Assembly: GCA_019058365.1 (NCBI GenBank)
Contig: JAHPZE010000024.1
Location: 1-64,000 of the forward strand
Source of the DNA: Promethearchaeota archaeon
Lineage (GTDB): Archaea; Asgardarchaeota; Lokiarchaeia; Sigyniarchaeales; SOKP01
DNA: 64,000 bases
Direction of reading: 5' to 3'
Shown here: piece after piece, positions 4,375 to 63,398 of the stretch
How positions within the stretch are numbered: the first letter of the stretch is position 1
Layout: the number at the start of each line of letters is the position of its first letter
Made by a program: the position numbers and the translations under genes
Notes under the pieces: model-generated
What the model saw: the letters and a program-made list of their open reading frames with translations, nothing else
What the model was told of the DNA's origin: nothing
Databases searched by the model: none

Positions 4375-4415
4375 AATTTATTATCCTAAAATTATGTTAT
4401 AGAAAATATCTAATT

Positions 4416-5579
4416 TTAGTCGGTAAAATAAAGATGTTCATCAAAACCAGTCTCAGCTACCAAGTCTGTAGCTAGTTTTTGAATTGCATTCTTAGAGGGA
4501 TTTTGTAATAATCGTCTAGAGATATTTATTACTTGTGTTAATTTAACATCTGGAAATTCTCGTATAATATTATCATAACGAGAGAAATCTATTCCCGCGG
4601 TATAAACTCCAGCTTGATCATGACCAGCCTGTGATGATACTTGCCAATGTTCTACTTTCAGTTCAATTTTGGACAAGAGATTTGAGCAGAAGAACCATTC
4701 TAGATAAAGATTCATTCTTTTTGATTTTCTTTTTGTATCTTTTAACATTTTGTAAGCTTTATTTAACCTATCCGGATGGATTTGGCGAAAAACTCTTTCA
4801 TAACTATCATTCATATTTTCTTTAACATGTGCTTTTATAAGTTCCATTATTTCATCGACTTTTTTTGCTCTTTCTCCCGTAATTTCATGTTCAATTGATG
4901 TTACATGTTGATCGATGGCATTTTGAGTTTGTTGGCTTCTATCAATAGAAGTAGATTGTGTTGTTGAAGCTTGTTGAACCCTTGATGGAGGAGTGTCCCT
5001 TGTTTGGATTTCTGTAGGTACACTTATAATTTCTTGAGGTGGTAATGTAAATAAGGTATCCAATTTGGAAGGATCTTGTCTTACTTCATTGAATTTCTCC
5101 TCTATCTCTTGAATATTATAACCAATTGATTGTAAATAAAATGCAGCACTAGCAAGCTGCTGTTCTAATGCAGATGATCCGCTGTAGGTGGGTCTAAATT
5201 CTTTTTCTATTTGTTCATCCGCAATTTGGCTAATATTTTCCTCTTTTATTTCGCTTGCTTTGAGCGAACCTAATTTAGTGAGGATATATTGGATTTGATT
5301 AGGAGTGAGATAACTTAAATTTCCCGTTGGTCCGATCATATGAGAAATTTTTTCCATTTTTCTAAGTATTTCCGCAATATCTTCTTGACTTCTTCCTTTT
5401 GATATTATTAAGAAGTGTTCTAAGAAATTTTTATCGAATCCCGCAATTATACTAAGATATTTTTCGTCATAGCTATTAAGATGCTCATGTAATTGATTTC
5501 CGCGAAAATCGGTGGGTAAATTAATCTGATATACCATAATATTATCAGTTATCATATAAATGTAGTCTGATTTTTGCAT
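4416..5579 (-). CDS. Hypothetical protein with central Q/S/T-rich linker
   Basis: 387-aa ORF, no recognisable motif. Confidence 0.75.
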   Translation of the reverse strand: MQKSDYIYMITDNIMVYQINLPTDFRGNQLHEHLNSYDEKYLSIIAGFDKNFLEHFLIISKGRSQEDIAEILRKMEKISHMIGPTGNLSYLTPNQIQYILTKLGSLKASEIKEENISQIADEQIEKEFRPTYSGSSALEQQLASAAFYLQSIGYNIQEIEEKFNEVRQDPSKLDTLFTLPPQEIISVPTEIQTRDTPPSRVQQASTTQSTSIDRSQQTQNAIDQHVTSIEHEITGERAKKVDEIMELIKAHVKENMNDSYERVFRQIHPDRLNKAYKMLKDTKRKSKRMNLYLEWFFCSNLLSKIELKVEHWQVSSQAGHDQAGVYTAGIDFSRYDNIIREFPDVKLTQVINISRRLLQNPSKNAIQKLATDLVAETGFDEHLYFTD

Positions 5580-6235: not shown

Positions 6236-6766
6236 ATGAATCTTTGGAAAGATGTTCCCTCTGGAGATAATCCGCCAATTACTCTAAATGCAGTTATCGA
6301 AGTTATTAGTGGTTCAAGAGATAAATATGAGTATAACTCTGAATGGGAAGTTTTTGTATTAGATCGAGTTATTCCCTCCTCTGTTATTTTTCCTGTTGAG
6401 TATGGTTTTATCCCTCAGACTTGGTCAGATGATGGTGATCCTTTAGATATAATGGTATTGAGTTATGAACCGCTCGAAGTGGGGTGTGTTGTAAAAGTGC
6501 GAGTTATTGGTGCGTTAATTATCGAAGATGAACATGGAGATGACCCAAAAATTCTTTCTGTTATAGTTAATGATCCGAGATTTAGTGGATATAATGATAT
6601 TCAAGATATACATGGCCACAAACTTAAAGAAATTCAAGAATTCTATGAGACATATAAAAGATTAGAGCCACATAAATGGGTTAAATTTAAGGAATGGAAA
6701 GGAGCCAATGATGCCCAAAAAATTGTTGATTATTCTCTCAACCTATTTAAAAATAAAAGATTTTAG
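6236..6766 (+). CDS. ppa: Family I inorganic pyrophosphatase
   Basis: KYEY, YGFIPQT, DGDPLD motifs. Confidence 0.96.
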   Translation: MNLWKDVPSGDNPPITLNAVIEVISGSRDKYEYNSEWEVFVLDRVIPSSVIFPVEYGFIPQTWSDDGDPLDIMVLSYEPLEVGCVVKVRVIGALIIEDEHGDDPKILSVIVNDPRFSGYNDIQDIHGHKLKEIQEFYETYKRLEPHKWVKFKEWKGANDAQKIVDYSLNLFKNKRF

Positions 6767-6808
6767 CTAAAACTGATTAAATAAAAAAAAAGTAATAACT
6801 AAATATAA

Positions 6809-8356
6809 TTATTTTGTTATAAGTATTGTTTTCCATTTTTTAAGCATTACAATAGAAATGCTTAATCCCGCTAATATTATAAAGAATATACTATATCCTG
6901 GGATCTCTCCTCCTCCTGCTGATGGAATGTCTACAATAATCTTAATACAGTTAGACAGAGTTAAACCATAATCATTTTTTGCAGCAGCAATAAAATAATA
7001 TTCTCCCGAAGTATATCCACTTAGCTGCTTGGTCATATTTGTGGTTTCTAATGCAATGGGTGTTAAACTACCATTAATTTCAGTAATGTAGCTTGAGTAT
7101 TCATAGATAGAATAATTATCTGCTCCCGAAGAGTCTGTCCATAGAAGATCAAAAATACCATCAGTATCCGGATTAGTTGCGTTTGTTGATAGAGTAAAAG
7201 AATATGGAAGCAGATATCCAAATACAGCATTAGTATCTTGCAACATTAAAGAATAATTTCCCATTCCAGACCCCCAAAAAAATGTCCCATTTAATAAAAT
7301 TCCTGAATACTTTTCATACCACACTAATCCCCCGAAACCATCCAGATCTTCAAGTTCCCAAATGCTAATAGGTCCAAATCCGGGAAACTCTGAATTAATG
7401 CTCTTTTTAACCTCGAAAATATGATCTCCTTCTCCATCAACAGCAATAGGCACATTAGATCCTAATGACACGTTAGTAAATATCCAAAATGGAGTATATA
7501 AACCTGGAAAGAAACTCATTCCAGTACCTGCGTCATTACTCATAATTCTAGTTGTGGCATCATCAGTCCAGTTATCAACACCTATCGAAGTTAAATCTGA
7601 AGTGCAATTGTATATATTAACTGAATATCCTGTATACTGAATTTTTAAAGGGAGACTTGTAGTCCCTCCAGACACTATATAATCCATATATAATCCATCC
7701 AATAATCCCGATAGAGGTGCCACATTGCTAAAAACAACATTGGTATTAAAAAATTCAAATATATAATAGCCAATCCCATAGATAAAGTATCCTTTAATTA
7801 AAATTCCAGTACTCTTTTCATACCATGCAATTCCTCCGGGTAAAGTCAAGTCTTCCACCTGCCAGACTTCAACAGATCCAAATCCAGGAATATTAAAAAT
7901 TTTTTGTTTTGTTATATTAAATATATGGTCTCCCTCGCCATCTACTACAATTGGTATAAGGTCGTAAAGAGTAACATTTGTAAAAATCCAAATTGGGGCA
8001 TGTGATCCATCAGTAAAGGTAATTGGTCCACTTGACATACTAATTTGGCGAGTTGTTTCATCCTCAACCCATCTACTAAGTCCCACACCGCTAAACCAAC
8101 TCAATACATTAAAATTGTTACCAGAATCGTATTCATAGCTGAATCCTGAATTATATTGTGTACCCGAAGCATAAAATGTATAATTTACGACCATACCATC
8201 AAATATTTCTGCTTGAGAACTTTTTACGTTTTTTGGTACTTCTATAATAATTCGAGGATTACACTTCAGAATAGTGAAACTTGAAATCAACGGAAGGAAA
8301 AAAAGAACGATTATTAGCCCTAAAGCTAATTTAGCTTTCAAATTAATTTTTTTCAT
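6809..8356 (-). CDS. Secreted surface protein with duplicated domain, FN3-like domain and C-terminal PGY-TM-basic (Loki-CTERM-like) anchor
   Basis: N-terminal signal/TM; two copies of a domain (WIFTNV...DGEGDH...WYEK..GIL); C-terminus GGGEIPGY + hydrophobic helix + KKWK. Confidence 0.85.
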   Translation of the reverse strand: MKKINLKAKLALGLIIVLFFLPLISSFTILKCNPRIIIEVPKNVKSSQAEIFDGMVVNYTFYASGTQYNSGFSYEYDSGNNFNVLSWFSGVGLSRWVEDETTRQISMSSGPITFTDGSHAPIWIFTNVTLYDLIPIVVDGEGDHIFNITKQKIFNIPGFGSVEVWQVEDLTLPGGIAWYEKSTGILIKGYFIYGIGYYIFEFFNTNVVFSNVAPLSGLLDGLYMDYIVSGGTTSLPLKIQYTGYSVNIYNCTSDLTSIGVDNWTDDATTRIMSNDAGTGMSFFPGLYTPFWIFTNVSLGSNVPIAVDGEGDHIFEVKKSINSEFPGFGPISIWELEDLDGFGGLVWYEKYSGILLNGTFFWGSGMGNYSLMLQDTNAVFGYLLPYSFTLSTNATNPDTDGIFDLLWTDSSGADNYSIYEYSSYITEINGSLTPIALETTNMTKQLSGYTSGEYYFIAAAKNDYGLTLSNCIKIIVDIPSAGGGEIPGYSIFFIILAGLSISIVMLKKWKTILITK

Positions 8357-8497
8357 GATATTATAACTTTATTTTATTGTGATTTCTTTTTTGTAGAAAT
8401 TTGTTAATATTAGAATTAAAGGAGACTTCATTATATAATATCTTGTTTACATAAAAGTCAAATTTCACAAAAATGGACGTGAATAGGCAGCTTTTAT

Positions 8498-8581
8498 GAA
8501 TTTAAAGAATGGAAAAAGCTTAAGAATGCCAAAGAAATAGTTGATTATTCTCTAAACCTATTTAAAAATAAAATGTTGTAA
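8498..8581 (+). pseudogene. Orphan duplicate of the ppa 3' end
   Basis: Translates EFKEWKKLKNAKEIVDYSLNLFKNKML*, gapless against ppa KFKEWKGANDAQKIVDYSLNLFKNKRF* (6683-6766). Confidence 0.9.
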
Positions 8582-52897: not shown

Positions 52898-54916
52898 ATG
52901 AGTTACAAGCGAAAGAAACTATGGGAACCCTCAAACGAATGGATTAAAAATGCAGAAGCAACCCGTTTTATTGAATTTATCAATAAGGAATACAATCTTA
53001 ATATAAAAGGAGGGAAAGACCTATATAGATGGTCAGTTGAAAAAATTCCTGACTTTTGGGAAGCCATGTGGAAATTTTCAGGGATTATAGCATCCAAACC
53101 GTATTATAAGGCAGTAGAAGACTTAAGTGTTTTTCCAGGTACTAAATGGTTTCCTGGGGCAAAATTAAATTTTGCAGAGAATCTTCTGAAGTATAAGGAT
53201 GATCAACTAGCATTTATATTTCAAGGCGAAACTAAAGTATCCAAGCAAATAACCTATGCTGAATTAAATAAAACTGTATCTCGCTTAGCTAAATCTCTCA
53301 AGGAGGTTGGTGTTAAAGTTGGCGATAGAGTCGTTTCATACATCCCTAACTTAATTGAAACTCCCGTTGCCATGCTTGCCGGAGCAGCTATCGGTGCAAC
53401 TTGGGCTTCGTGTGGTGCTGAACTCCAACCTAGTGCCGTTATCGACCGATTTAGTCAAATTAAACCTAAAATTCTCTTTACCGTAGACGGTTATTATTAT
53501 CGAGACCAAGTATTTGATATCCGAGAGAATGCAAAGGTGGTGGTTGATGCCATTCCTTCCATAGAAAAAGTAATTGTGGTAACTTATGCCAGCGAAGGAA
53601 AGTGCGATGTGAGTGAAATTCCAAAAGCAGTCAATTGGGAAGATTTTATCTCTAAAGAGGAGGATCCACCACTTGAATTTGAACAACTTCCTTTTGATCA
53701 CCCCATTTATATAATGTTTTCAAGTGGTACTACGGGAAAGCCCAAATGTATGGTTCAAAGCGCAGGCGGGGTGTTGATTAACCATCTTAAAGAATTGATT
53801 CTCTCTACTGATTGCAAACGAAGTGATGTGCTTAATTATATTACCGCGCCCTCATGGATGATGGTGTAAGTATTCCTTATACCAGCCAAAATGTGGAACT
53901 GGCTTATCAGTGCCTTAGGCGTGGGCGCAACAATATTCTTATATGATGGAAATCCACTATACCCAGATCCATTAAGCTTTTTTGAATTGATTGAAAAGCA
54001 TAAAATCTCGATATTTGGTACTAGTGCTGCATATATCCACTATTTAATGGGACTTGGTGTTAAACCAGGTGAGAAATATGATCTGAGTGGTTTAAGGGAA
54101 ATATCACAAACAGCATCAACTCTTTCTCCAGAAGGTTTTGAATACGTTTATCGTGAAATTAAGAAAGATCTCTTTTTCAATTCTATTAGTGGTGGAACAG
54201 ATATTAATGGATGCTTTGCAGGAGCAATTCCAATTCTTCCTGTTTATTCTGGTGAATTGCAAGGGCGTGCATTAGGAATGAAAGTAGAAGCGTACAATGA
54301 TAATGCAAAACCTGTTGAAGATGAACAAGCAGAACTTGTATGTGAAGCACCAGCTCCTTCTATGCCCGTGTATTTCTGGGGAGATGATGATAATTTGACA
54401 AAATATAAAGCAGCTTATTTTGATCACTTTAAAGATACAGGAAAGAATGTATGGAGACACGGAGATTATATAGTAATTCATAGTGACACAGATGGAATTA
54501 CTTTTTGGGGACGCTCTGATGCTGTTTTAAAGCCCTCAGGAGTAAGAATTGGTACTGCTGAAATATATAATGTAGTCGAACAACTTCCTGAAGTTTCAGA
54601 CTCATTGGTAATTGGTCAACAATGGGAAGGTGATATCCGCATTGTTATGTTCGTTCTATTAAATAAGGGCTATGAATTAACAAATGAATTAAAAACAAAA
54701 ATACAACAGACTATTCGAGAAAAAACAAGTCCAAGACATGTGCCAAAGTTAATATATGCTGCACCATCTGATGGGATTCCTTACACTTTTAGTAATAAGA
54801 AAGTTGAAATTGCAGTAACTAAAATTATACATGGTATGGAAGTAGCTAATCGTGGAGCCCTCCGAAACCCAGAATCCTTGGACTTCTATATGCAAATGAA
54901 AGATAAACTTAAATAA
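52898..54916 (+). CDS. aacs: Acetoacetate--CoA ligase (AACS), interrupted by a 30-nt putative BHB intron; spliced product 662 aa
   Basis: Two ORFs (52898-53869, 53891-54916) in the same frame; WFPGAKLNFAENLL, MFSSGTTGKPKC, WMM|WNWL, SISGGTD, WRHGD, GRSDAVL...GVRIGTAEIY. Confidence 0.92.
53861..53890 (+). other. Putative bulge-helix-bulge mRNA mini-intron (30 nt)
   Basis: atggtgtaagtattccttataccagccaaa contains an in-frame TAA and a 9-bp internal stem; BHB bulges UGA (53859-61) and AAA (53889-91); excision restores SWMMWNW. Confidence 0.8.
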
Positions 54917-54924
54917 ACAAAATT

Positions 54925-56034
54925 TTAATTCTTTTTTTTTAATTTAAAACATTTTTTTTTTCTATATAAGCTATCTTCATAATTAGTAAGCATTTCTCGC
55001 ATAAGATCCATCCCAAGATAGATATTATAACCAATTCCTTCCCATTCACTATTAGTTTGCCAAATTTTATAGGGTATTTTAAAATAACATTTAACTTGTT
55101 GGATAAAATTGATGCTTCCAGATGTGATTACAGTTGATCCTACCTTACCATCACCATCATAGTATCCTAAAATAAAAGCTAAATACAATTCTCTCGAGGC
55201 TAATCTTGGCAATTCAATAAATCTAGATTTTTGATTTCCAACTATAAAACCATGTCTAATTAAAGTATTTGCAAATTCATCATTAACAAACCGAATCCTC
55301 ACATAATCAGTTAATTCTCCTTCTCTTCTAATTTCGATTTCTTTATGCTCAAGATTAAAACCTATGACATTAGCAAATTTATCTAATAAATCTTTTTCAT
55401 CATCTTTATGCAATTCAACTCCAAATCTGATATTATTTCCATGTTCAGAAAGCCAGGCTTCTGCGAATAACCATCCTAACCAATAAGCTTTTTCTTTAGT
55501 ATCGATATATTCGAAATAATCAATTTTTAAGCATGGATGCCATTTATATATACCATATATCGATTTCTTTGGATTATTTAAACTCATATATTTATTAAAT
55601 AACTCAGAGATTTCTCTGGGGACTCTGCATAAATTTTTATCGATCTGAGATTTATACTCTTTAAGTGTTTCGATGGAGATTATGTAATTTGGATTTTGCT
55701 TTATCTGATCTTTCTTTTTTTTAATATGAAACCTTGTTTGCCCTAGAACAATACTTAATTGTTCATCTGTTAATTTATCATTCAATAATTTTTTTTCTGG
55801 AATATAATTAACAATTAATCTCTTTAAATCATTTATGAAGCTTAATGTATCATAAATGTTAGAGTTTTTTGAAAATACATTAAGATTATTATCAAAATTT
55901 TCATTAATATAATATGAATTAATTCCTTTTTTAAAATAGGCAAATTGTTTACTGTTAGAACAATTTCTTTTAATCATATGCTTTTTAGAGCAATATATGT
56001 CATTAGTTCTTATAGTGGATTTATTTTTAACCAT
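54925..56034 (-). CDS. Free-standing two-motif LAGLIDADG homing-endonuclease-like protein
   Basis: YFEYIDTKEKAYWLGWLFAEA (motif 1) and LAFILGYYDGDG (motif 2) with an N-terminal extension. Confidence 0.85.
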   Translation of the reverse strand: MVKNKSTIRTNDIYCSKKHMIKRNCSNSKQFAYFKKGINSYYINENFDNNLNVFSKNSNIYDTLSFINDLKRLIVNYIPEKKLLNDKLTDEQLSIVLGQTRFHIKKKKDQIKQNPNYIISIETLKEYKSQIDKNLCRVPREISELFNKYMSLNNPKKSIYGIYKWHPCLKIDYFEYIDTKEKAYWLGWLFAEAWLSEHGNNIRFGVELHKDDEKDLLDKFANVIGFNLEHKEIEIRREGELTDYVRIRFVNDEFANTLIRHGFIVGNQKSRFIELPRLASRELYLAFILGYYDGDGKVGSTVITSGSINFIQQVKCYFKIPYKIWQTNSEWEGIGYNIYLGMDLMREMLTNYEDSLYRKKKCFKLKKKN

Positions 56035-56268
56035 AACTGAAATCTTAGAGAATTTTTAGTTAATCTTTTAAAATTGCTATATGTAAAACGAATATATTTT
56101 TATCTTTATATATCTTAATAGAGTAAGGATTTTGTCTTTATATATGATTTAAAATTATAAGAGAATCATATTTAATAATAATAGACAAACACAAAAAAGG
56201 AGAAATTAATCCAATTAGCTTTGAAAAACTGAAAGTAATATATTTGAGTAATAGTTTATCTTTCTTTC

Positions 56269-59200
56269 TCAAATTTTTTCATTATATTCAATAATAACAA
56301 CACTACCTTCAATTTCTAATAAAGAAATTCTTTCTTCTTTTATACCAGCACATAAAAGGGCATAAACTATTCTATAATTAGTAAAAAAGTCGCGTTCAAT
56401 TTCTCTGGGTGAAGATAAATCAATTTTAGTTTTATTCTCAGAGAAGATTTTAAAGGAGTTGATAACCTTTTCAGCAAGTACCTTATTTATTTCAATTTTA
56501 TTTAATTTATGTTTATCTTTAAATTGATTAAAACTCAAGTATATTTGAAACTTGTCTCCTATTAGGATTTCTTCATTAAAACATTCAGCATTGAACAATT
56601 TATGGTATGCAGAATTTATATTTTTTAAAATTTGAAAGCCGTTTATTATTAAATTCCTAATCTCTTCTTTTTTTTCTCGAAAAAATTCTTGAGTATTATT
56701 ATGACGTTCAGGATTAGCAATTGTTACTAAATCATTTAAAAAAGAAATACAAAGATCCTTTTTGCTTTTTCCAAAAATGAATTGAAAAATATTATCCCAA
56801 TTATAAGCATTATTAATGATATATTTATAATGATATCTTTGACTTAGATATAGTATATTTTTGTTGGAATAGCTTATTGGAAGGCCCTTTCTGACATATT
56901 TTTCTTCCTCCTTATCCAAGTCCGACTGAATTTTAGGTGGCAGTTTTGATTTCCAGATATCTCCATATAATAAGTAAAAAATATTGTAAATGAAAATTCG
57001 TAATTTTGTCTCGAAAAATGTCCAAAGTTCACCAACGCATTCCTTGTAAAGATGTAACCAGTAAAATGCTCTAATTCTATTAAACTTCTTTTTATCTTCA
57101 TTAGTCAAACCTTGTGTTCCTATTATGATAATTCCATTGTATCTTATCCACTTTTCTATTTTTTTTATCAATGCTATTATACCACTAACAAATGCAGCTA
57201 TAAAAATAGTTTTATCTTCATTTGAAAGATTTAGGCTCTCTTCACAAAATTGTAACTGGTGAATATACCTCCTAAATACTTCATTATCTTTCCAAGTGTA
57301 TAAAAATTCATCAAATAGTTCTTTCTGAGAAGAGATCTTTTTTTCTTCCCCAGATAGTTCATATAAATAGTTTAAAACGAATTGAAATACGACTTTTGAT
57401 TTCTCTATTATTTCTCCAAATGAGATTTTTGAATTTGCATATTCAATAACTTGAGAGAAAGGATTCGCTATATTTTTCTTTAACTTGTTTAGATTTTTTT
57501 GCTCTGTTGGATTACCTCTTGCGATCCCATCTAATCTTGACAAGGTATTTCTTGAATAATCAATAAAATTTAAACCTTTTGGCTCATCTCCACTCAGAAT
57601 CTGATTAATATAATATTTAAGAGTAAACTTGAAAGTATTTACCACATCTAAACAAAAATTTCTTAAATCATTAGAAAGTCCCCAAATGAAATCATCTTTT
57701 ATCTTATTTCTGGCAATTAATTTGTACTGATTAAGGATTGTAAAGAGTTCAATATTATTTTCAAAAAGATCTTCCCCTTCCTTTACTATTTTTTTTTCTT
57801 GTATTATACATAATAGTTCCGCTATATTATTTATAACATCTTTTGAAACACTTAATTCTTTCTTTAATGCATTCAATTTTGCGTGCAAATCTTTCCGTTC
57901 CGTTAATTTCTGATAAATTGGCTCGAATGAGTCTTGATCTAAATCGTAATTAATGGATAATAAACCAATATTTTGACTAGTACTTGATATTCTGTCCTGA
58001 AATTCTTCTATGAAGGTTCTAAAGGGAATTTCACGAGGATAACTTCTTTGTATAATATTCATTAAATGCTCAATATCTGTATAAGAAATATATTTTGTAA
58101 AATCATAGGGTTCTTCATTTGAAAAGGCTTCTAACCTTCTTCTAATTAGTTCGAAAGCATCTAAAGGGCCAATAGAGTCAAACGGTTCTTTTTGGAAGAT
58201 TGTACCTTCATAAGCAGAATTTTCTCTAAGTTCTTTTATCCATAATTTTGAACCTGCAATAAATAAGCTTACTTTTATATTTTCTCTAAGGATCTCTTCG
58301 AAAAAGTTTTGGAGTCCCTTTAAAAAATCAAGAGCTAAATTAGCTTGATTATCATATTTATGTAACCCATCCAAATATACAACAAATCCTTTGGATGAAG
58401 AATTATCCAAAAAAATTTTAAAAAGCTGTATTATCTCATCTGAAGAATTCCCTGAAATATAGCTCCTGGGATCGATACTAGTCCATCTGATTAACGCTTT
58501 ATATAATGCAACATATAATTTTTTAAAAAAGAGATTTCTTATTTGAAATATTGATTGAGAGGCATCTAACATAATTTGCAGAGGTATTATTTTTGAATTA
58601 ATAAAAAAAGGATAAAGATAATCAAATAATGTTGTTTTCCCACATCCAAACTCCCCATAAAATAAATAAGACTTTCCTAACAATTCATCTGGATATTCTC
58701 TAACTAGCTGAGTATATTTCCTAAATATAGGTAGCATAACTACTATCTTTTCATAGTATTCTTCCTCGATGTATGTTAGACCATAAGCAGTTGGAAAAGG
58801 ATTCCGTTCCAATCCAATAATGCGCCACCAAGGTTGGACATCTCTTAATTTTCCTAATTTTCGCTTCTCTATATATTTATTAGATAACACTAATGGACTT
58901 ACGCTTAATTCTTCATCAATTCTCGAACGAAATTCATCTAATTTTTTTTTTTCCCTTAAAATTTTCTCTTCAATCCTCTCTTGAACTTCTATGATAACCT
59001 CTTCTTTTGCTTTTTTAAGCATAGCAATGTTCTCAATCTCTCCACTACTTAATTTTTCTTTGATTTCTTGGAAAAAACTCTGAGAATCTGGATCATTCGA
59101 TTCTATTATCTCGTTTTGGTAATGAACAAATTCTCGAATTACAGTTTTTTCAGATAAAAAAGGGATTTTGTTAATTATAATTTCAAGATCTTCTTGATTC

Positions 59201-59403
59201 GAGATCTGATTGGAATCTACTAAATATTGAATAATTTCGTGAGCTAAATTCGCCCAGTTAGGATTGCCATATTTTTTCTTATGTTTGTCTATAAAAAATT
59301 TTGTTTTCCGTTTCTTTAAATCATCTAAATTTACTTTATTTGTAATTATCCTAGAATAGTTTTTTTTAATAAATTCACGAATAATTTCTCTTGTATCTGT
59401 CAT
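56269..59403 (-). CDS. Large P-loop NTPase with C-terminal Swt1/HEPN-like domain (possible defence protein)
   Basis: GLERNPF, Walker A YGEFGCGKTT, Walker B FVVYLDGLH; C-terminal FETKLR.FI...YG..W...NWD.IF..IFG...NPERH. Confidence 0.75.
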   Translation of the reverse strand: MTDTREIIREFIKKNYSRIITNKVNLDDLKKRKTKFFIDKHKKKYGNPNWANLAHEIIQYLVDSNQISNQEDLEIIINKIPFLSEKTVIREFVHYQNEIIESNDPDSQSFFQEIKEKLSSGEIENIAMLKKAKEEVIIEVQERIEEKILREKKKLDEFRSRIDEELSVSPLVLSNKYIEKRKLGKLRDVQPWWRIIGLERNPFPTAYGLTYIEEEYYEKIVVMLPIFRKYTQLVREYPDELLGKSYLFYGEFGCGKTTLFDYLYPFFINSKIIPLQIMLDASQSIFQIRNLFFKKLYVALYKALIRWTSIDPRSYISGNSSDEIIQLFKIFLDNSSSKGFVVYLDGLHKYDNQANLALDFLKGLQNFFEEILRENIKVSLFIAGSKLWIKELRENSAYEGTIFQKEPFDSIGPLDAFELIRRRLEAFSNEEPYDFTKYISYTDIEHLMNIIQRSYPREIPFRTFIEEFQDRISSTSQNIGLLSINYDLDQDSFEPIYQKLTERKDLHAKLNALKKELSVSKDVINNIAELLCIIQEKKIVKEGEDLFENNIELFTILNQYKLIARNKIKDDFIWGLSNDLRNFCLDVVNTFKFTLKYYINQILSGDEPKGLNFIDYSRNTLSRLDGIARGNPTEQKNLNKLKKNIANPFSQVIEYANSKISFGEIIEKSKVVFQFVLNYLYELSGEEKKISSQKELFDEFLYTWKDNEVFRRYIHQLQFCEESLNLSNEDKTIFIAAFVSGIIALIKKIEKWIRYNGIIIIGTQGLTNEDKKKFNRIRAFYWLHLYKECVGELWTFFETKLRIFIYNIFYLLYGDIWKSKLPPKIQSDLDKEEEKYVRKGLPISYSNKNILYLSQRYHYKYIINNAYNWDNIFQFIFGKSKKDLCISFLNDLVTIANPERHNNTQEFFREKKEEIRNLIINGFQILKNINSAYHKLFNAECFNEEILIGDKFQIYLSFNQFKDKHKLNKIEINKVLAEKVINSFKIFSENKTKIDLSSPREIERDFFTNYRIVYALLCAGIKEERISLLEIEGSVVIIEYNEKI

Positions 59404-59591
59404 TGTATTTAATTTTTCAAATTAACTTCTATAAATTCTTTTGGTAAAGAACAATTATGTATAAAAGTTAATTATTTTTTTCTCGATTTAATATTAACTA
59501 TCAGTTTATAATTAATTTCATGCCATTATTTTAAATTTTTTTTAGCATATCTTTATCATTCAAATATTAAAAAAAAAAACTTCATAATTTT

Positions 59592-59771
59592 CACGTATTA
59601 AGGCTTGTAGTTCAAGCACCTCCAGATGGTATTCCCTATACATTTAGTAATAAAAAGGTTGAAATAGCAGTGACCAAAATCATCCACGGCATGGAAGTAG
59701 CCAATCGTGGAGCTCTTAGAAATCCTGAATCCCTGGATTACTACATGGAAATGAAGGATAAGCTACAATAA
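59592..59771 (+). pseudogene. Orphan duplicate of the AACS 3' end (copy 2)
   Basis: HVLRLVVQAPPDGIPYTFSNKKVEIAVTKIIHGMEVANRGALRNPESLDYYMEMKDKLQ*, 50/59 aa identical to 54737-54916 with many synonymous differences. Confidence 0.95.
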
Positions 59772-59845
59772 TTAAATAATTTCTTCTTGATTTCTCCGTA
59801 GAATATAAAGAAAGAACAAAAAATTTAATTGGATTATGTTTTAGA

Positions 59846-60172
59846 TTAGTTAATCTGAATGCTAAATCTTTTTTTTAATTGTTTGATTCCTTCAATAGAT
59901 ATGAAATATTTTGGATTTTTTCCCTTTTTTTGAATTATCCAATTCTGTTTTATGCAGTAATCTAAAAAACCGCCCCCAACTATAAATGGATTAATAGGTT
60001 TTAATTTTTCAGTCCTTAATATCTCATCAGTGATATTTTCTTTATGCCATTTTTCATCTTCTTCCTTAGATATTCTCATTTTCTTCATAAATTCTTCATG
60101 TTCCTTATCTGTCATATCTCTAGGTTCCATATGCCATTTATCATGCTCTTCAGAATTTATATCCATTCCCAT
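59846..60172 (-). CDS. Small His/Glu/Met-rich hypothetical protein
   Basis: Repeats EEHDKWH / KEHEEF / EEDEKWH. Confidence 0.75.
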   Translation of the reverse strand: MGMDINSEEHDKWHMEPRDMTDKEHEEFMKKMRISKEEDEKWHKENITDEILRTEKLKPINPFIVGGGFLDYCIKQNWIIQKKGKNPKYFISIEGIKQLKKRFSIQIN

Positions 60173-60241
60173 ATGTTTGATTTTTTTTGCCAGTGAAACA
60201 TCACCATGAATTTTAAATCAAATTAGTATTTTTGAAAATAT

Positions 60242-60267
60242 AAATATTTCGGAAAACCGAAACATTT
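60242..60267. promoter_or_regulatory. Palindromic operator between divergent genes (likely MarR site)
   Basis: aaatatttcgg-aaaa-ccgaaacattt, 11-bp arms with one mismatch. Confidence 0.6.
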
Positions 60268-60305
60268 TTAGATTGTGATTTATACTAATCATTAAAAACT
60301 AATAG

Positions 60306-60728
60306 ATGAAAATGAAATTAGATAATTCTTTTGATAAATTTTTTAAAATTATTAGTATAATTTTTGAAAAATATTATTATCCACCTATAAAACAAGTAGA
60401 AAGGAAAGATTTAACTAAGGTTGGATTTGCTTTTATAAATTTCATTGGTTTCCGAAAACAATGTTTTATTAAAGAATTTGTTAAAATGTTTAGCATCTCT
60501 CCTAGTACTGCCTCTGAACATATAGAACGATTATACAATACAAATTATATTTATAAACACCCTCATAGAACCGATAAACGAAAAGTAATGGTATCATTAA
60601 CAGATAAAGGATTAGAACTTTTACAACAGTTTAACAAAAGGAAATACCGCTTATTAAGAGAAAGATTTTTAAAGCTAGATGAAAAAAATGTCAAAAATCT
60701 TATTGAGCTTTTATCAGAATTCTTATAA
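60306..60728 (+). CDS. MarR-family transcriptional regulator
   Basis: ISPSTAS..IERL....YI......DKRKVMVSLTDKG. Confidence 0.9.
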   Translation: MKMKLDNSFDKFFKIISIIFEKYYYPPIKQVERKDLTKVGFAFINFIGFRKQCFIKEFVKMFSISPSTASEHIERLYNTNYIYKHPHRTDKRKVMVSLTDKGLELLQQFNKRKYRLLRERFLKLDEKNVKNLIELLSEFL

Positions 60729-61057
60729 ATAAATTTTTCATTACAATTGAAATATCAACTATAATAATATTTTTTGAAGAAGAATCCATCTTATACAAAG
60801 AAAAATTCTCATATTCTGCTGGAGAAACACCAATGTTTCTAAAAAAATTTTTCCTATAGCTGATAAACAACAATTTATAAAAGAAGAAAAAAAAGTTACT
60901 ATAATTACCATGCTTTTTGAATAAAATAATATCAGCAATAGCTAATCAACACTAAATAGTAAAAGGAACTCAATTAATTTTATCATAATAGGTTTAGTTA
61001 AAAATTCTATCCAAAAGTTTTAAATTAAATAATAAGAATGTATCTAATTGAAGAAAT

Positions 61058-61891
61058 ATGGGAATTGTAGGAGCATTTATTCTTCCTCATGGATCCATGA
61101 TTTTAGATCCTAATAAGAATGGAATATCAAATCAAGCAATTAAGTTACACTTTGAAATGAAAAAAATTGGGAAAATTATTAGTCAATTATCTCCTGATGT
61201 AATTTTTCTAACAACTCCTCATAGTATCGCATTGTCTTATGATTATGGGATATACTTAAACAAGATTGCGAGTGGGACAGCAGAGTGGAATGGTGAATAT
61301 GGAGAATTTAGTATAGATATAAGATTATCTCAAGAGTTATCTACTAAACTTTTGAATTTTCTACAAGATAAAAAGAGTGCAGTCCAAGGAATTTCAGCAT
61401 ATTCATCAAGTGTAAGTGTTCCTTTGCAATGGGGTGAAGTGGTACCTCTCTGGTTTTTAAAAGCCTTACAATTAAATTTGGATTATATCATTCTCTCTCA
61501 ACCACTGAGAAGGTTGGAACGTGCAAAGAGTATGATAACAGAATCAATATCTTTGGGAACTCATTTGAAAAAGTTTTTTGAATCAATTGATAAACGAGTA
61601 GCTCTAATAGTAAGTGCTGATCTTAGTCATACACATGAAAAGGAAGGGCCATATGGGTTTTCGGAAGAAGCGGAAATATTTGATAAGATGATTCAAGATT
61701 GGGCAGCCAGTTTGAATAACCAAATTCTAACTGAAAAAATCGTCCCAATTTTAGATAAAGCAATGTGTTGTGGATTAATCGGATTCGCTATTCTCCAAGG
61801 AATGATAGGAAATGACAACTTTAAACCAAATGTATTAATTCGAGAATCACCCTCCTATTATGGAATGATGGTCGCTTCATATCTCAAATAA
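61058..61891 (+). CDS. Class III extradiol dioxygenase subunit B (LigB/MEMO)-like protein
   Basis: ILPHG, TPH, WGEVVPL, SADLSH, GPYG, CG, YYGM. Confidence 0.85.
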   Translation: MGIVGAFILPHGSMILDPNKNGISNQAIKLHFEMKKIGKIISQLSPDVIFLTTPHSIALSYDYGIYLNKIASGTAEWNGEYGEFSIDIRLSQELSTKLLNFLQDKKSAVQGISAYSSSVSVPLQWGEVVPLWFLKALQLNLDYIILSQPLRRLERAKSMITESISLGTHLKKFFESIDKRVALIVSADLSHTHEKEGPYGFSEEAEIFDKMIQDWAASLNNQILTEKIVPILDKAMCCGLIGFAILQGMIGNDNFKPNVLIRESPSYYGMMVASYLK

Positions 61892-61929
61892 TTATAAAAA
61901 GTTGAAAAATAAATTAGAGATAAATTGTA

Positions 61930-62025
61930 AAAATTATACATAATAATGAGTCTACTGACCAAAATGTTCTCAATATCCCGGAAACTCTAAACTTCTCTAT
62001 AGAAATGAAAGATAAGTTTCAATAA
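61930..62025 (+). pseudogene. Older, decayed duplicate of the AACS 3' end (copy 3)
   Basis: KIIHNNESTDQNVLNIPETLNFSIEMKDKFQ* is gapless against KIIHGMEVANRGALRNPESLD(F/Y)YM(Q/E)MKDKL(K/Q)*, 14-15 of 31 aa identical with the same stop position. Confidence 0.8.
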
Positions 62026-62124
62026 TTTTTATTTTTTTTTTCCTTATTTAGGATTAAACAAAAATATAAAGTTTATTCAATAATAGTTAAAATAGAACAA
62101 AAAAACAAAAAAATTAACAGGCGA

Positions 62125-62601
62125 TTGATTATAACAAAAGTTTGGATGATTTATCATACTAAAAGTGGTAATTGCAGAAAAATATGTGAGGATATAACAG
62201 AAAAATTAAAGGATAAATATGAAATCAGAACTGATGAAGTAAAAAGAATTAAACCAGAAGATATAAGTAATCATCCTCCAGATGTATTAATAGTGGGATC
62301 AAGGATTACATTTGGTAAACCTGATAAAACTATAACAGGTTTTATTAAAAAGTTAGGTAAAAAGTTGGAGGCTCCAATACCAAAAGCAGCAACTTTTTAT
62401 ACACATATGTCTCCTTGGCAAAGTGATTTCGCTAAAATGAAAAGTACTCTTAAAGAAAACAACGTGGCAAAGGAAATTCTTCTTGATTTTCTTGAATTCA
62501 AAATACAAGACACAGGAAAAATGAGTGGTCCTCCAGAGCTAGGTCAGGAACCAAAAATTGACGATTTTGTGGGTAAAGTTCGAGAATTTATAGGAATTTG
62601 A
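62125..62601 (+). CDS. Flavodoxin-like protein
   Basis: IYHTKSGNC..I, LIVGS, ATFYT. Confidence 0.8.
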   Translation: MIITKVWMIYHTKSGNCRKICEDITEKLKDKYEIRTDEVKRIKPEDISNHPPDVLIVGSRITFGKPDKTITGFIKKLGKKLEAPIPKAATFYTHMSPWQSDFAKMKSTLKENNVAKEILLDFLEFKIQDTGKMSGPPELGQEPKIDDFVGKVREFIGI

Positions 62602-62650
62602 AAATAACTTATTATTTATTTTTTTTAATTCATTATTTTTTCATTTTTAA

Positions 62651-63075
62651 TTAGATGATTTTACAAGAAGTTTCAATAGTAAGAAAAGCTAAATTATACG
62701 CTCTTATGCATTTTAATCGTTTTCTAACGGTTTTAAGAGATAATCCAATATAATCAGCTATATCTATTATAGGTTTCCTTGCATCTCTATTTAAAGTCTT
62801 TAATATCTTATAATCAATGCTTGTAAGTGGTTCTGGGGATGTTATATAAGGCGTTTTAACTATCCCTATATCTGGGGTATTATATTTAGCGGTTCTTATA
62901 ACATAGCTACTGTAATCCTGAAGTAAAGAGATATCTCTCAATTGCCCAACAACCATCAGAAATTTACCGCTTGCTATTACAATGGCATTGATATTTCATG
63001 TTGTCCTAACTCCTTACTAACCGCATCTAATGACTTTGCTTGAAAAATACTAAAAATCACGACCACTAGATACTT
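62651..63075 (-). pseudogene. Fragmented Lrp/AsnC-type regulator
   Basis: IDYKILKTLNRDARKPIIDIA..IGLS.KTVRKRL HTH; upstream coding-like sequence appears frameshifted; truncated C-terminus. Confidence 0.6.
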
Positions 63076-63398
63076 CAATACAATAAGACTTGGTCGAGCA
63101 ATAAAAGATTCAATAATTTTATCATTGCTGTCATACACAAAGGACAAGGTTCATGTGTAGATAGTAAAATACAATTTTCTAACTCCTTACCAATTATTTT
63201 TGTTACTTTTTTTGTACAATTAATTTCAGCATAAGTAGTTGGATCGTTATCAGTTATCTCAGTATCATGTGATTGGGCTAATAACTTATCATTTTTTACT
63301 ATGACTACACCAAAACCTTTATTACCCTCTTTAAAAGAAATTTTTACTTCTTGGAATGCGATTTCCATAAATCCTTCATAATATTCTTTTGAACGCAT
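63075..63398 (-). pseudogene. Truncated nucleoside (guanine/tRNA adenosine-type) deaminase
   Basis: FGVVIVK, HEPCPLC present but HAE mutated to YAE; frame degenerates after the Cys pair. Confidence 0.7.

Follow-up and report, generated by a model that had tools for sequence, protein, structure and literature searches.

Displaced tails of acetoacetate-CoA ligase and integrase-free gene-end relics in a Lokiarchaeial genome

The window considered here (the whole stretch of DNA that was analysed) comprises 64,000 nt of contig JAHPZE010000024.1 of a Promethearchaeota archaeon. It includes the gene for acetoacetate-CoA ligase (AACS), two further copies of the 3′ end of this gene with cargo genes before each, and a second locus, ppa, with a displaced gene end of its own. 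The features are as follows.

6236–8578, plus strand: ppa locus, with ppa (6236–6766), a cargo ORF of 515 aa (6809–8356, minus strand) and a ppa tail relic (8501–8578)
52898–53863, plus strand: N-terminal half of AACS, ending ...SWMM (NCBIfam acetoacetate-CoA ligase, E 1.7e-108)
53864–53893, plus strand: hairpin mini-intron within the motif WMM/WNW, an in-frame insert of 30 nt that carries TAA
53891–54916, plus strand: C-terminal half of AACS, including the live tail 54737–54916 (NCBIfam, E 1.5e-134)
54925–56034, minus strand: free-standing LAGLIDADG homing-endonuclease gene (c15; weak Pfam LAGLIDADG_3 match, two motifs in the translation)
56269–59403, minus strand: cargo gene of 1044 aa, probably a STAND-type P-loop NTPase (protein-atlas lead only)
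59592–59793, plus strand: copy 2, a displaced AACS tail (C-half codons 283–341, stop and ~22 nt of post-stop sequence)
59846–60728: block 2a, with a 108-aa gene (59846–60172, minus strand) and a MarR-family regulator (60306–60728, plus strand; Pfam MarR)
61003–62048, plus strand: LigB-like dioxygenase gene (61058–61891; Pfam LigB) and copy 3 (61924–62025), one block
62125–62956: flavodoxin-like gene (plus strand) and AsnC-type HTH gene (minus strand), both from Pfam
63075–63398, minus strand: truncated deaminase gene (107 aa versus 292 aa in the related genome G035)

The "live" AACS gene is interrupted in frame by the 30-nt, TAA-bearing insert, which corrects the original prediction on this point. 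The insert forms a hairpin of 9–11 bp with compensatory changes, and its site is occupied in eight alleles of the genus and 12 metagenome alleles. An ATG repeat leaves an uncertainty of 3 nt in its boundary. Identity to relatives changes along the gene. The first ~250 nt are 90–94% identical to G035 and the remainder ~80%, while identity to G040:C17 is ~77% before the insert and 96–99% after it, the switch falling exactly at the insert. Identity to G033 reaches 93–99% over about nt 1350–1700, and that to G012 is 89–93% in the tail only. AACS is a mosaic of tracts from different species.

Pfam identified the LAGLIDADG_3 (weakly), MarR and LigB genes that had been predicted for the cargo. The LAGLIDADG mobile unit extends to about 56154–56159. 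The predicted NTPase-HEPN protein of 1044 aa has no Pfam, NCBIfam or PADLOC match; its atlas lead is to AAA_22/AAA_16/NPHP3_N/KAP clusters, with HEPN_Swt1 in a minority, and homologues occur in three of 135 family genomes at only 29–30% identity. The label "His-rich" does not suit the 108-aa protein, which has only five histidines. A copy of the gene pair that this protein forms with MarR is found at 73% identity on another G035 contig. The LigB gene and copy 3 move together as a single block, which is 92% identical to G040:C57 and 93% to G031:C65. Homologues of the flavodoxin-like and AsnC-type genes lie 1–4.5 kb downstream of AACS in L202, L193, L146 and L155. In the deaminase gene, 93% identity to G035 begins abruptly at 63120, and the zinc motif HAE is changed to YAE. 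On its right the variable region ends in an illegitimate junction at 63119/63120, which truncates the resident deaminase gene.

The three AACS 3′ ends are co-oriented, as originally predicted, by alignment for copy 2 and by genome-wide tblastn for copy 3. Copy 2 (59592–59771) matches the live tail at 136 of 180 nt and 50 of 59 aa, without gaps and with a shared stop. From codon 9 on, 26 codons carry synonymous differences only and four are non-synonymous, whereas 20,000 simulated runs of random mutation gave a mean of 20.2 non-synonymous codons and a minimum of 11. This bias excludes divergence in place and agrees with the proposal that copy 2 evolved as a functional gene end in a separate lineage. 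It is a young displaced AACS tail, for which the best live-tail match anywhere is 84–87%. Copy 3 is also real and has the same stop, although tblastn places its start at 61924 rather than 61930 (span 61924–62022). It matches at 14–15 of 33 aa without gaps, with E-values against the whole 4.74-Mb genome of 4e-4 (live tail as query) and 1.1e-4 (copy 2 as query). It ranks third genome-wide, and the following match is noise (E ~1.1, 23.9 bits); the similarity is therefore significant, at an E of about 1e-4 versus ~1. Four synonymous versus 17 non-synonymous codon differences indicate that copy 3, a decayed AACS tail, is old. No pre-insertion allele was found for either copy, and the joints at 59592 and 61924 are therefore illegible at the nucleotide level.

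Relics of AACS recur among relatives. They lie downstream of the gene, and always in its orientation, in at least nine of 21 loci of the genus, in further genomes besides and in 14 of 80 metagenome loci. Nearly every species has a cargo of its own. Relic boundaries are scattered over C-half codons 240–320, with none before codon 240. In G049, the relic is 91% identical to the live tail of G001 and is followed by 21 nt identical to the G001 post-stop sequence; a homologue of the G001 neighbour gene lies behind it, and the flank becomes sister-species-like (G006-like, 92%) at ~1977. A relic, here of foreign, G001-like type, can retain the native post-stop flank and neighbour gene of the AACS tail. 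In G048, a donor-type segment (tail, neighbour gene and ~75 nt) is joined straight to a relic at codon 285. L165 and L176 have a common tract (96.8% identity) that terminates inside the relic, which implies that the relic acts as a homology arm. Right boundaries are conserved for both the c22-c23 cassette and the endonuclease unit, in some species without a relic directly behind; that of the endonuclease unit is common to G040, L155, L203, L169 and L171. The array need not be strictly chronological or built in place, as had been envisaged: the LigB and copy 3 block occurs at 92–93% identity in two other species, and a 91% relic lies outside a 69% relic in G040:C57.

Displaced ends are specific neither to AACS nor to tails. 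A genome-wide search identified 30 genes with downstream tail relics and 19 with upstream head relics (~50 genes); six relics are on the other side, none is on the opposite strand and only two are mid-gene fragments. The inorganic pyrophosphatase gene ppa (Pfam Pyrophosphatase, E 5e-52) carries the predicted signature, a co-oriented C-terminal relic (E 6e-6). Cargo is heterogeneous and shares no mobility gene. In most relics synonymous-only changes equal or exceed replacements. Only one relic was found in G012, of the same genus, and the 400-kb control samples are too small. No block at the AACS locus contains an integrase or recombinase identifiable by Pfam. Genome-wide there are two Phage_integrase (tyrosine recombinase) matches, both on other contigs, and no serine recombinase or resolvase. 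No integrase is involved in relic formation, and the original prediction was correct in this respect.

Homology-facilitated illegitimate recombination (HFIR) is described for naturally transformable bacteria and for E. coli conjugation (de Vries & Wackernagel, 2002, and Prudhomme, 2002, both as cited in PMC5361080; PMC3240628). Like the event reconstructed here, it anchors one end by homology and joins the other at microhomology without a site-specific recombinase, and it causes loss or duplication of resident DNA close to the anchor. The reconstructed junction is at C7:148499-155499, where G048 and G015 retain the empty site. Our genome is 97–100% identical to G048 over the first ~600 nt of the query, which reach ~400 nt into gene A. 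Beyond that point identity is ~89%, over a stretch that takes in the new tail, an ORF of 154 aa and 164 nt from the tail of a convergent gene; the joint has a 2-nt microhomology (AC), and the relic and all DNA past it are again 93% identical to G048. The donor-type tract starts ~850 nt upstream of the relic boundary. With its distant homologous crossover and its microhomology joint, C7 is an HFIR-type locus, and the truncated deaminase at 63119/63120 fits the same pattern. At C12, a mirror-image head relic is 96% identical to the live head of G015, whereas the live gene is only 87% identical.

With relics of foreign origin recurring across loci, formed without an integrase, and one full junction of HFIR type reconstructed at C7, we consider HFIR with the DNA of relatives, followed by spread through ordinary homologous recombination, the best explanation for the extra AACS tails (probability roughly 0.6). 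The AACS gene of a related Lokiarchaeial species, with its own downstream genes, would recombine into the chromosome. One side would be a homologous crossover within conserved AACS coding sequence, and the other an illegitimate, microhomology-level joint within the last 30–90 codons of the resident gene. The donor would bring a complete new tail and cargo, and the truncated resident tail would stay behind the cargo as the relic. The block of tail, cargo and relic could then move between species by double homologous recombination, with gene body and relic as arms, and a block arriving at an occupied locus would displace older cargo outward, giving a serial array. We infer that the joints at 59592 and 61924 have this origin and that stacking is mediated by the arms. 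Repeated entry of relatives' DNA beside AACS, the core of the original prediction, is well founded in the mosaic gene and variable cargo. The anchor is the gene body rather than the 3′ end as such, and the crossovers precede the relic by hundreds of bases. The analogy to integrons is loose, since variable boundaries and a microhomology joint do not indicate site-specific recombination.

The uneven distribution of relic boundaries along the gene requires an extra assumption under HFIR, either that joints form near the end of homology or that long repeats are lost. The conserved right boundaries that lack an adjoining relic in some species (c22-c23 cassette and endonuclease unit) also count against it. 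HFIR is known from bacterial laboratory crosses, whereas here it is deduced from natural genomes of an uncultivated Asgard archaeon, and the literature searched contained no demonstration of it in an archaeon. Unlike laboratory HFIR, ~50 loci and both gene ends are affected, and the joint falls systematically within the anchor gene's own end, which is why a relic is left.

A rather unlikely alternative is a Campbell-type insertion-duplication, in which a linear fragment from a relative (gene end plus neighbours) circularised and a single homologous crossover in the short end fragment duplicated that fragment on both sides of the cargo. This would explain co-orientation and why only end fragments survive, with no need for an integrase, and the C48 locus speaks for it. 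There, a 766-nt segment (the heads of two divergent neighbouring genes and the intergenic region between them) lies on both sides of a 4.26-kb cargo, and the site is empty in G048. Circle integration or a long staggered break fits this duplication better than one-ended recombination. However, circle integration predicts the opposite of the C7 donor tract, which starts far upstream of the relic boundary; donor tracts at AACS also start far upstream, at the intron, and single crossovers in 80–290 nt at 75–90% identity would be inefficient.

The head parts of the C48 repeats, which share 92–98% identity and resemble each other more than they resemble G048, are also compatible with local duplication. 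Here a long staggered break or tandem duplication captures cargo, the tail is copied in place, and synonymous divergence follows when the live copy is overwritten by homologous recombination with relatives' alleles. Homologous exchange is rampant in AACS, and short-read assembly could lose identical young repeats, hiding the expected near-100% pairs. We regard this as distinctly improbable, given that no long relic among the ~50 loci exceeds 90% nt identity to its own live end. At C7, moreover, the donor tract is unbroken from gene body through cargo, and the cargo terminates in a piece of another gene's tail, natural only in donor gene order.

Elements such as prophage e14 are classically recognised by a replaced 3′ end and a displaced pseudo-copy of that end with synonymous divergence. 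Prophage e14 and phage 21 replace the 3′ end of E. coli icd; the gene stays functional because the incoming DNA supplies a synonymously diverged end, and the original end persists as a pseudogene behind the insert. AACS likewise works on with an incoming end of this kind and has its old end behind the cargo, and islands that target tRNA genes are known to form tandem arrays at a single attachment site. A site-specific element that brings a replacement tail and has its attachment site in the AACS 3′ end, its integrase lost or acting in trans, is nevertheless very unlikely. e14 depends on a tyrosine integrase and a fixed attachment core; neither was found at the AACS locus, and the only two tyrosine recombinases are off this contig. 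Relic boundaries spread across 80 codons, head relics are about two-thirds as frequent as tail relics (19 versus 30 genes), the reconstructed joint has only 2 nt of microhomology, and the cargo consists of ordinary metabolic and regulatory genes. A chimeric join of strain variants is barely credible, despite a metagenome-assembled genome of 54 contigs with 6.6% contamination and a copy 2 joint found in this assembly alone, as AACS with the endonuclease unit recurs in G040, LigB with copy 3 in G040 and G031, and cargo plus relic at 96.8% in the independent assemblies L165 and L176, while 80%-identical repeats do not confuse assemblers and a strict orientation rule over ~50 loci is unlike random misjoins.

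Under HFIR, the frequency of events at AACS may involve the LAGLIDADG gene, which is multi-copy and present in 77 of 135 family genomes. It occurs only with intron-bearing AACS alleles (5/7 versus 0/41), and is thus probably a selfish, mobile, predicted homing endonuclease tied to the mini-intron rather than mere cargo. AACS relics are found at 4/7 endonuclease-positive versus 7/47 negative loci (p = 0.025, from small counts of related sequences), and thus at endonuclease-free loci also. AACS is struck unusually often, probably because the predicted endonuclease and mini-intron make breaks and drive inter-species gene conversion in it. Free-standing homing endonucleases can work together with an intron that lacks an ORF ("collaborative homing") and are found at phage recombination boundaries (PMC2790892; PMC10055350). 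As in those systems, the endonuclease gene accompanies the intron-bearing allele of the adjoining gene, the gene-conversion boundary at the intron site is sharp, and intron-less alleles have endonuclease remnants. Unlike them, the AACS locus is on an archaeal chromosome and has a hairpin insert of 30 nt rather than a group I intron, and displaced target-gene tails accompany the predicted endonuclease unit.

The closest parallel to the array is in Rhs, CDI and T6SS effector-immunity loci, which undergo C-terminal displacement and form orphan arrays (Jackson, 2009, PMC2935791; Kirchberger, 2017, PMC5361080). They also have a co-oriented series of 3′ fragments from a single gene, in which each arrival displaces the older modules downstream; they too are integrase-free, and their arrays are later moved whole by homologous recombination. 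This displacement has been explicitly likened to integrons and ascribed to HFIR (PMC2935791; PMC5361080). There, the displaced ends are functionally different toxin domains kept with immunity genes and under selection, whereas AACS is a housekeeping enzyme whose tails are functionally equivalent; its cargo genes are unrelated, and heads as well as tails leave relics in this genome. The AACS case is an archaeal, housekeeping-gene form of C-terminal displacement, and this form is new. The same integrase-free process would have marked ~50 genes in this organism, at either end.

The AACS (acetoacetate-CoA ligase) gene of the window, which is part of a 68-kb contig in a short-read assembly of 54 contigs (4.74 Mb, ~30% GC), is followed by two further copies of its own 3' end. 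We refer to such displaced extra gene ends as relics and to the genes between live end and relic as cargo. Block 1 holds a LAGLIDADG gene and a gene for a 1044-aa protein; block 2 holds genes for a 108-aa protein, MarR and LigB. G000 is the genome under study, other G numbers are genomes of relatives, C numbers are contigs and L numbers are fetched loci or metagenome contigs. The features are as follows (window coordinates unless a contig is named).

6236-6766: ppa, with a relic at 8501-8578
52898-53869 and 53891-54916: the two ORFs that make up the AACS reading
53864-53893: in-frame insert of 30 nt
54737-54916: live AACS tail
59592-59771: copy 2 of the tail
61924-62022 plus stop: copy 3 of the tail, with the orientation and stop of the live gene
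63075-63398: truncated deaminase gene, with the right-hand junction at 63119/63120 (comparison with G035)
G000:C7:148707-155162 (L084): two convergent genes with one tail relic each

Copy 2 repeats the final 60 AACS codons without gaps (136/180 nt and 50/59 aa identical) and shares the stop. From codon 9 on, 26 codons differ from the live tail by synonymous changes only and 4 by replacements; in 20,000 trials that introduced equally many random mutations into the live tail, replacement codons averaged 20.2 and never numbered below 11. Given so few replacements, copy 2 and the live tail diverged while each was a functional gene end, in separate lineages. This match, its mostly synonymous divergence and an origin elsewhere rather than by local duplication were central to the original prediction, and the alignment and simulation bear them out. 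Copy 3 matches the AACS tail at 14-15 of 33 residues, and its similarity proved significant, as the prediction needed it to be (E = 4e-4 to 1e-4 with the whole genome searched, against ~1 for the best unrelated match). Its changes are mostly replacements (17 non-synonymous vs 4 synonymous codons), and it is an old relic. An empty allele of block 1, with copy 2 as the live tail, was found neither in a DNA search of the genus (best match 87%), nor among 80 metagenome AACS loci searched for a live tail of the copy 2 type (best match just 84%), nor in a metagenome search with the MarR protein.

AACS itself is a recombination mosaic with a breakpoint at the 30-nt insert. Compared with G035, it is 90-94% identical over the first ~250 nt only, and the right flank is ~93% identical. 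Compared with G040:C17, identity is ~77% in the N-terminal half, jumps to 96-99% exactly from the insert, and beyond the jump is ~90% across the tail and LAGLIDADG gene to ~56154. Identity to G033 is 93-99% across about nt 1350-1700 of the gene, and G012 matches in the tail alone (89-93%). On the right, G035 identity comes back abruptly at 63120, within the deaminase gene. The deaminase has 292 aa in G035 and is cut to 107 aa in G000, where it ends in 15 new codons and its zinc-ligand motif reads YAE instead of HAE; the gene is a pseudogene that arose through the right-hand joint of the variable region. Since it lies between the AACS breakpoints and this abrupt return of identity, ~10 kb of the window is foreign relative to the closest relative, with homologous crossovers in AACS as its left limit and, on the right, what appears to be an illegitimate joint at the cost of a resident gene. 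Pfam searches of the blocks and flank identified a weak LAGLIDADG match, MarR, LigB, a flavodoxin-like gene, an AsnC-type HTH gene and the deaminase, in agreement with the predicted gene content. Family searches with the 1044-aa protein gave no match; the sole lead is atlas clusters of STAND/AAA NTPases, and a search for its donor context found homologues at 29-30% identity only.

AACS is present in 39 of 54 genus genomes, and 20 loci with flanks were compared. As anticipated for cargo among relatives, the gene content 3' of AACS differs among nearly all species, up to a conserved far flank, and includes katG, a Fur-family regulator, an LRR protein and others. Co-oriented tail relics occur downstream of AACS in G000 and G049 (two each), in G040 (two on C17, three on C57) and in G048, G035, G003, G042 and G006, with further tail relics in G045, G051 and G034. 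In an independent metagenome set, 14/80 contigs hold one to three relics, every one downstream and on the same strand; L176 holds three in series. The 5' boundaries of 35 relics fall at codons 240, 246, 253, 281-289, 292-303 and 309-320 of the part of AACS 3' of the insert (the C-half), and AACS tails are near-identical at the protein level over 21 species. One L176 relic is interrupted at 3727-4323 by a 597-nt insert with one ~125-aa ORF, bordered by an imperfect 15-nt repeat (AAGAAAGTYGAAATY) that could be a target duplication or an overlap of two relic alleles.

The G049 relic is 91% identical to the live tail of G001, and behind it are 21 nt identical to the G001 post-stop sequence and then a homologue of the G001 neighbour gene; the flank becomes that of the sister species (G006-like, 92%) from about 1977. 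The relic therefore retains an AACS tail with its native post-stop flank and neighbour gene and, as it is G001-like and not sister-like, the block probably reached G049 via homologous recombination. At the G048 locus, the tail, the neighbour gene and ~75 nt form a donor-type segment that runs straight into a relic with its start at codon 285.

Relics are found well beyond AACS. We searched G000 by tblastn with 60 residues from the end, the start and the middle of each of 3,592 ORFs, and kept matches in short open frames on the same contig and at most 10 kb away. Tail fragments were identified for 34 genes (30 co-oriented downstream, 4 co-oriented upstream), head fragments for 21 (19 co-oriented upstream, 2 downstream) and middle fragments for 2; no match was on the opposite strand. 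The genome-wide search of C-termini that had been proposed as a check thus yielded 30 genes with co-oriented downstream tail relics, and ppa, named earlier as carrying the same signature, is on the list. Live end and relic are 0.4-7 kb apart, with one to six unrelated genes inside. All-against-all BLAST of ~25 relic loci found no cargo gene and no mobility gene in common; the endonuclease is confined to AACS among the loci compared, and the cargo on C48, for example, encodes a methyltransferase, a corrinoid protein, TetR and TauE. Relics are mostly 75-90% identical to the live end, and in most, synonymous-only changes at least equal replacements. Head and tail relics are of roughly equal frequency, which speaks against elements directed at 3' ends and for a general recombination route in which selection retains only products with one intact gene copy. 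Control samples of 400 kb, which are too small to gauge how unusual the relic density is, held one relic in G012, none in G154, no directional pattern in G150, and 6 and 1 relics in two samples of G000.

After AACS, the second multi-relic locus of G000 is a 143-aa gene on C16 (427157-427588, minus strand; locus 424780-433991, L088) with two serial downstream tail relics and an upstream head relic. Beside a head relic on C17 (8579-8937; 2079-2437 of L086) is a ~360-nt sequence with many copies at 67-73% identity in all genus genomes searched (7 in G040), which may be a small repeated gene or a MITE-like element. The C10 and C17 loci were dropped as before-and-after cases on account of tandem paralogues and this multi-copy element.

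The cleanest reconstructed event is on C7 (148499-155499), where G048 and G015 keep the empty state of gene A, two genes and the convergent gene B. The query begins 208 nt before gene A; over its first ~600 nt, which reach ~400 nt into gene A, G000 and G048 share 97-100% identity, which then drops to ~89%. The ~89% tract spans the rest of gene A with its tail, then a 154-aa ORF, which adjoins gene B in other species, and then a 164-nt fragment of the gene B tail. This fragment and the gene A tail relic are back-to-back at 150955/150956, where the parental overlap is 2 nt (AC), and identity to G048 is back at 93% in the relic and beyond. The arrangement combines a single homologous crossover, located ~850 nt upstream of the relic boundary, with a single microhomology joint, and is a textbook product of homology-facilitated illegitimate recombination (HFIR), a process known in bacteria (PMC3240628). 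The C7 event is not site-specific, nor is it a single crossover inside the duplicated piece. AACS, as a conserved anchor gene, has a breakpoint at the insert, and the joint at 63119/63120 truncates a resident gene. C12 (88000-95000, L087) shows the mirror image of the tail relic case: a 255-aa gene has two head relics in series, located upstream of a 3.1-kb cargo; the outer is 96% identical to the live head of G015, the live G000 gene just 87%, and the second relic is shorter.

On C48 (16098-23394, L083), a 4.26-kb cargo is bordered on either side by a copy of a 766-nt segment that comprises two divergent gene heads with the intergenic region between them, which looks like insertion-duplication; because C48 differs from C7 in this, we keep integration of circles and long staggered breaks as rivals to HFIR. 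Besides HFIR in bacteria, one of the closest known cases is the 'C-terminal displacement' described for Rhs and T6SS effector loci, whose orphan arrays were proposed to arise by sequential displacement, with an integron-like look, no integrase and later transfer by homologous recombination (PMC5361080; see also Jackson 2009, as cited there). Serial orphan 3' fragments downstream of an intact gene occur at AACS (two in G000, three each in G040:C57 and L176); a polymorphic toxin with immunity does not, as AACS is a metabolic ligase. The likeness to an integron array that had been suggested extends to the serial tails and their outward ageing in G000, and not to an integrase, co-oriented cassettes or fixed repeat starts: cargo genes are on both strands and the repeats are gene tails of 30-90 codons with variable starts. 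Elements of the e14/icd type also replace the end of a housekeeping gene, by means of an integrase. The AACS tail is likewise replaced and remains intact, but relic starts are scattered rather than at a fixed crossover core, and no integrase is in or beside the block. Pfam searches of all ORFs in 52898-63398 found no integrase, transposase or resolvase domains, so that the predicted lack of a visible recombinase holds; in the whole genome (100% complete by marker genes), resolvase PF00239 is absent and Phage_integrase PF00589 has two matches, on other contigs (C7:157048 and C46:204041). Tandem in-place duplication of the tail is rejected on account of the synonymous bias of copy 2.

The 369-aa LAGLIDADG protein matches LAGLIDADG_3 below the Pfam cut-off (E = 0.0022) and I-CreI in the PDB at E = 0.27, and two LAGLIDADG motif-like stretches are visible in its translation. 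The family is mobile, sporadic and multi-copy: 77 of the 135 family genomes have it, with as many as 9 copies in one, and many copies are decayed by stops or lie within long ORFs. Directly past the AACS stop (17-74 nt), the gene is found solely in insert-bearing alleles (5/7 vs 0/41 in the metagenome set), and the right boundary of the endonuclease unit is conserved at about 56150-56159. Together with the conversion tract that begins at the insert, the tie to insert-bearing alleles is indirect evidence for a putative cleavage of alleles without the endonuclease gene. Remnants 3' of AACS occur in G038, L131, L169, L171 and L200; intron-less alleles have remnants behind them. A copy in G003 (C53:5632-6570; 73% identical, two in-frame stops) is upstream of AACS rather than downstream.

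The 30-nt insert carries a TAA and interrupts the WMM/WNW motif of AACS. It is flanked by identical AUG codons, and its stop, two codons in, is inside a 9-11-bp hairpin with covariation, bordered in folds by a 6x6 internal loop and a short outer helix. A canonical bulge-helix-bulge could not be drawn in these folds, as the four bases past either candidate cut site are unpaired with each other. Take-off and landing codons, a stop and a hairpin are features of programmed translational bypassing (T4 gene 60 and the yeast mitochondrial 'byps'), which the insert resembles and may represent. Relics occur at 4/7 endonuclease-positive and 7/47 other loci (p = 0.025), an association that is weak evidence because the sequences are related. 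We infer that breaks made by the putative endonuclease may raise the event rate at AACS. Relics at endonuclease-free loci and at ~50 other genes show that it is not required for relic formation.

Blocks may also spread once formed. AACS, its cargo and the relic as far as nt 71 are 96.8% identical in L165 and L176, which differ past that point; because the identity stops there, a recombination tract can apparently end within a relic. In G049 the block changes from G001-like to sister-like DNA just past the relic, and LigB with copy 3 travels as one block, 92-93% identical in G040:C57 and G031:C65 in different surroundings. Given such tract ends and such blocks, we infer a scheme in which a tail-cargo-relic block would bring both homology arms for transfer to any AACS allele. 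On entry into an occupied locus, the resident live tail would become the next relic, and stacking would yield a series that ages outward. The predicted rise of decay with distance holds for G000, with its young copy 2 and old copy 3, and for G040:C17, but not for G040:C57, where relic identities run 69%, 91% and 72%; blocks can also arrive as pre-built units. At ~72-73.3 kb of G040:C57 (positions 4315-5461 of the oriented locus), pieces of AACS directly flank the LigB block: upstream is an internal fragment of C-half codons 250-279 with 91% identity to a live gene, and downstream a copy-3-type tail (codons 309-341), an arrangement that looks like a past insertion of LigB into an AACS tail.

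Published work has centered on viruses, integrases and a few large elements (PMC8813620, PMC11529989). New here are the Asgard archaeal host, the functionally equivalent housekeeping-gene tails, the symmetry of heads and tails, the number of loci and the link to an endonuclease and intron. The boldest reading, to which we give a probability of about 0.35, is that Lokiarchaeial genomes may acquire much of their accessory gene content by an integrase-free route, through homology-anchored illegitimate recombination with DNA of related species. Gene-end-flanked blocks would then spread as portable cassettes by plain homologous recombination, displaced tails and heads would form a readable fossil record of acquisition order and age, and homing endonuclease-intron pairs would make housekeeping genes such as AACS super-hotspots.

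For annotation, relic fragments should not be called small genes. A co-oriented displaced gene end is a practical marker that pinpoints recently acquired cargo, orders acquisitions and flags candidate defence genes, such as that for the 1044-aa putative NTPase. The relics also suggest how a free-standing homing endonuclease might invade alleles with a different downstream neighbourhood, as the duplicated tail of the target gene could act as its second homology arm. For these archaea, the relics are direct sequence-level evidence of frequent homologous recombination between species and of an integrase-free route of gene gain.
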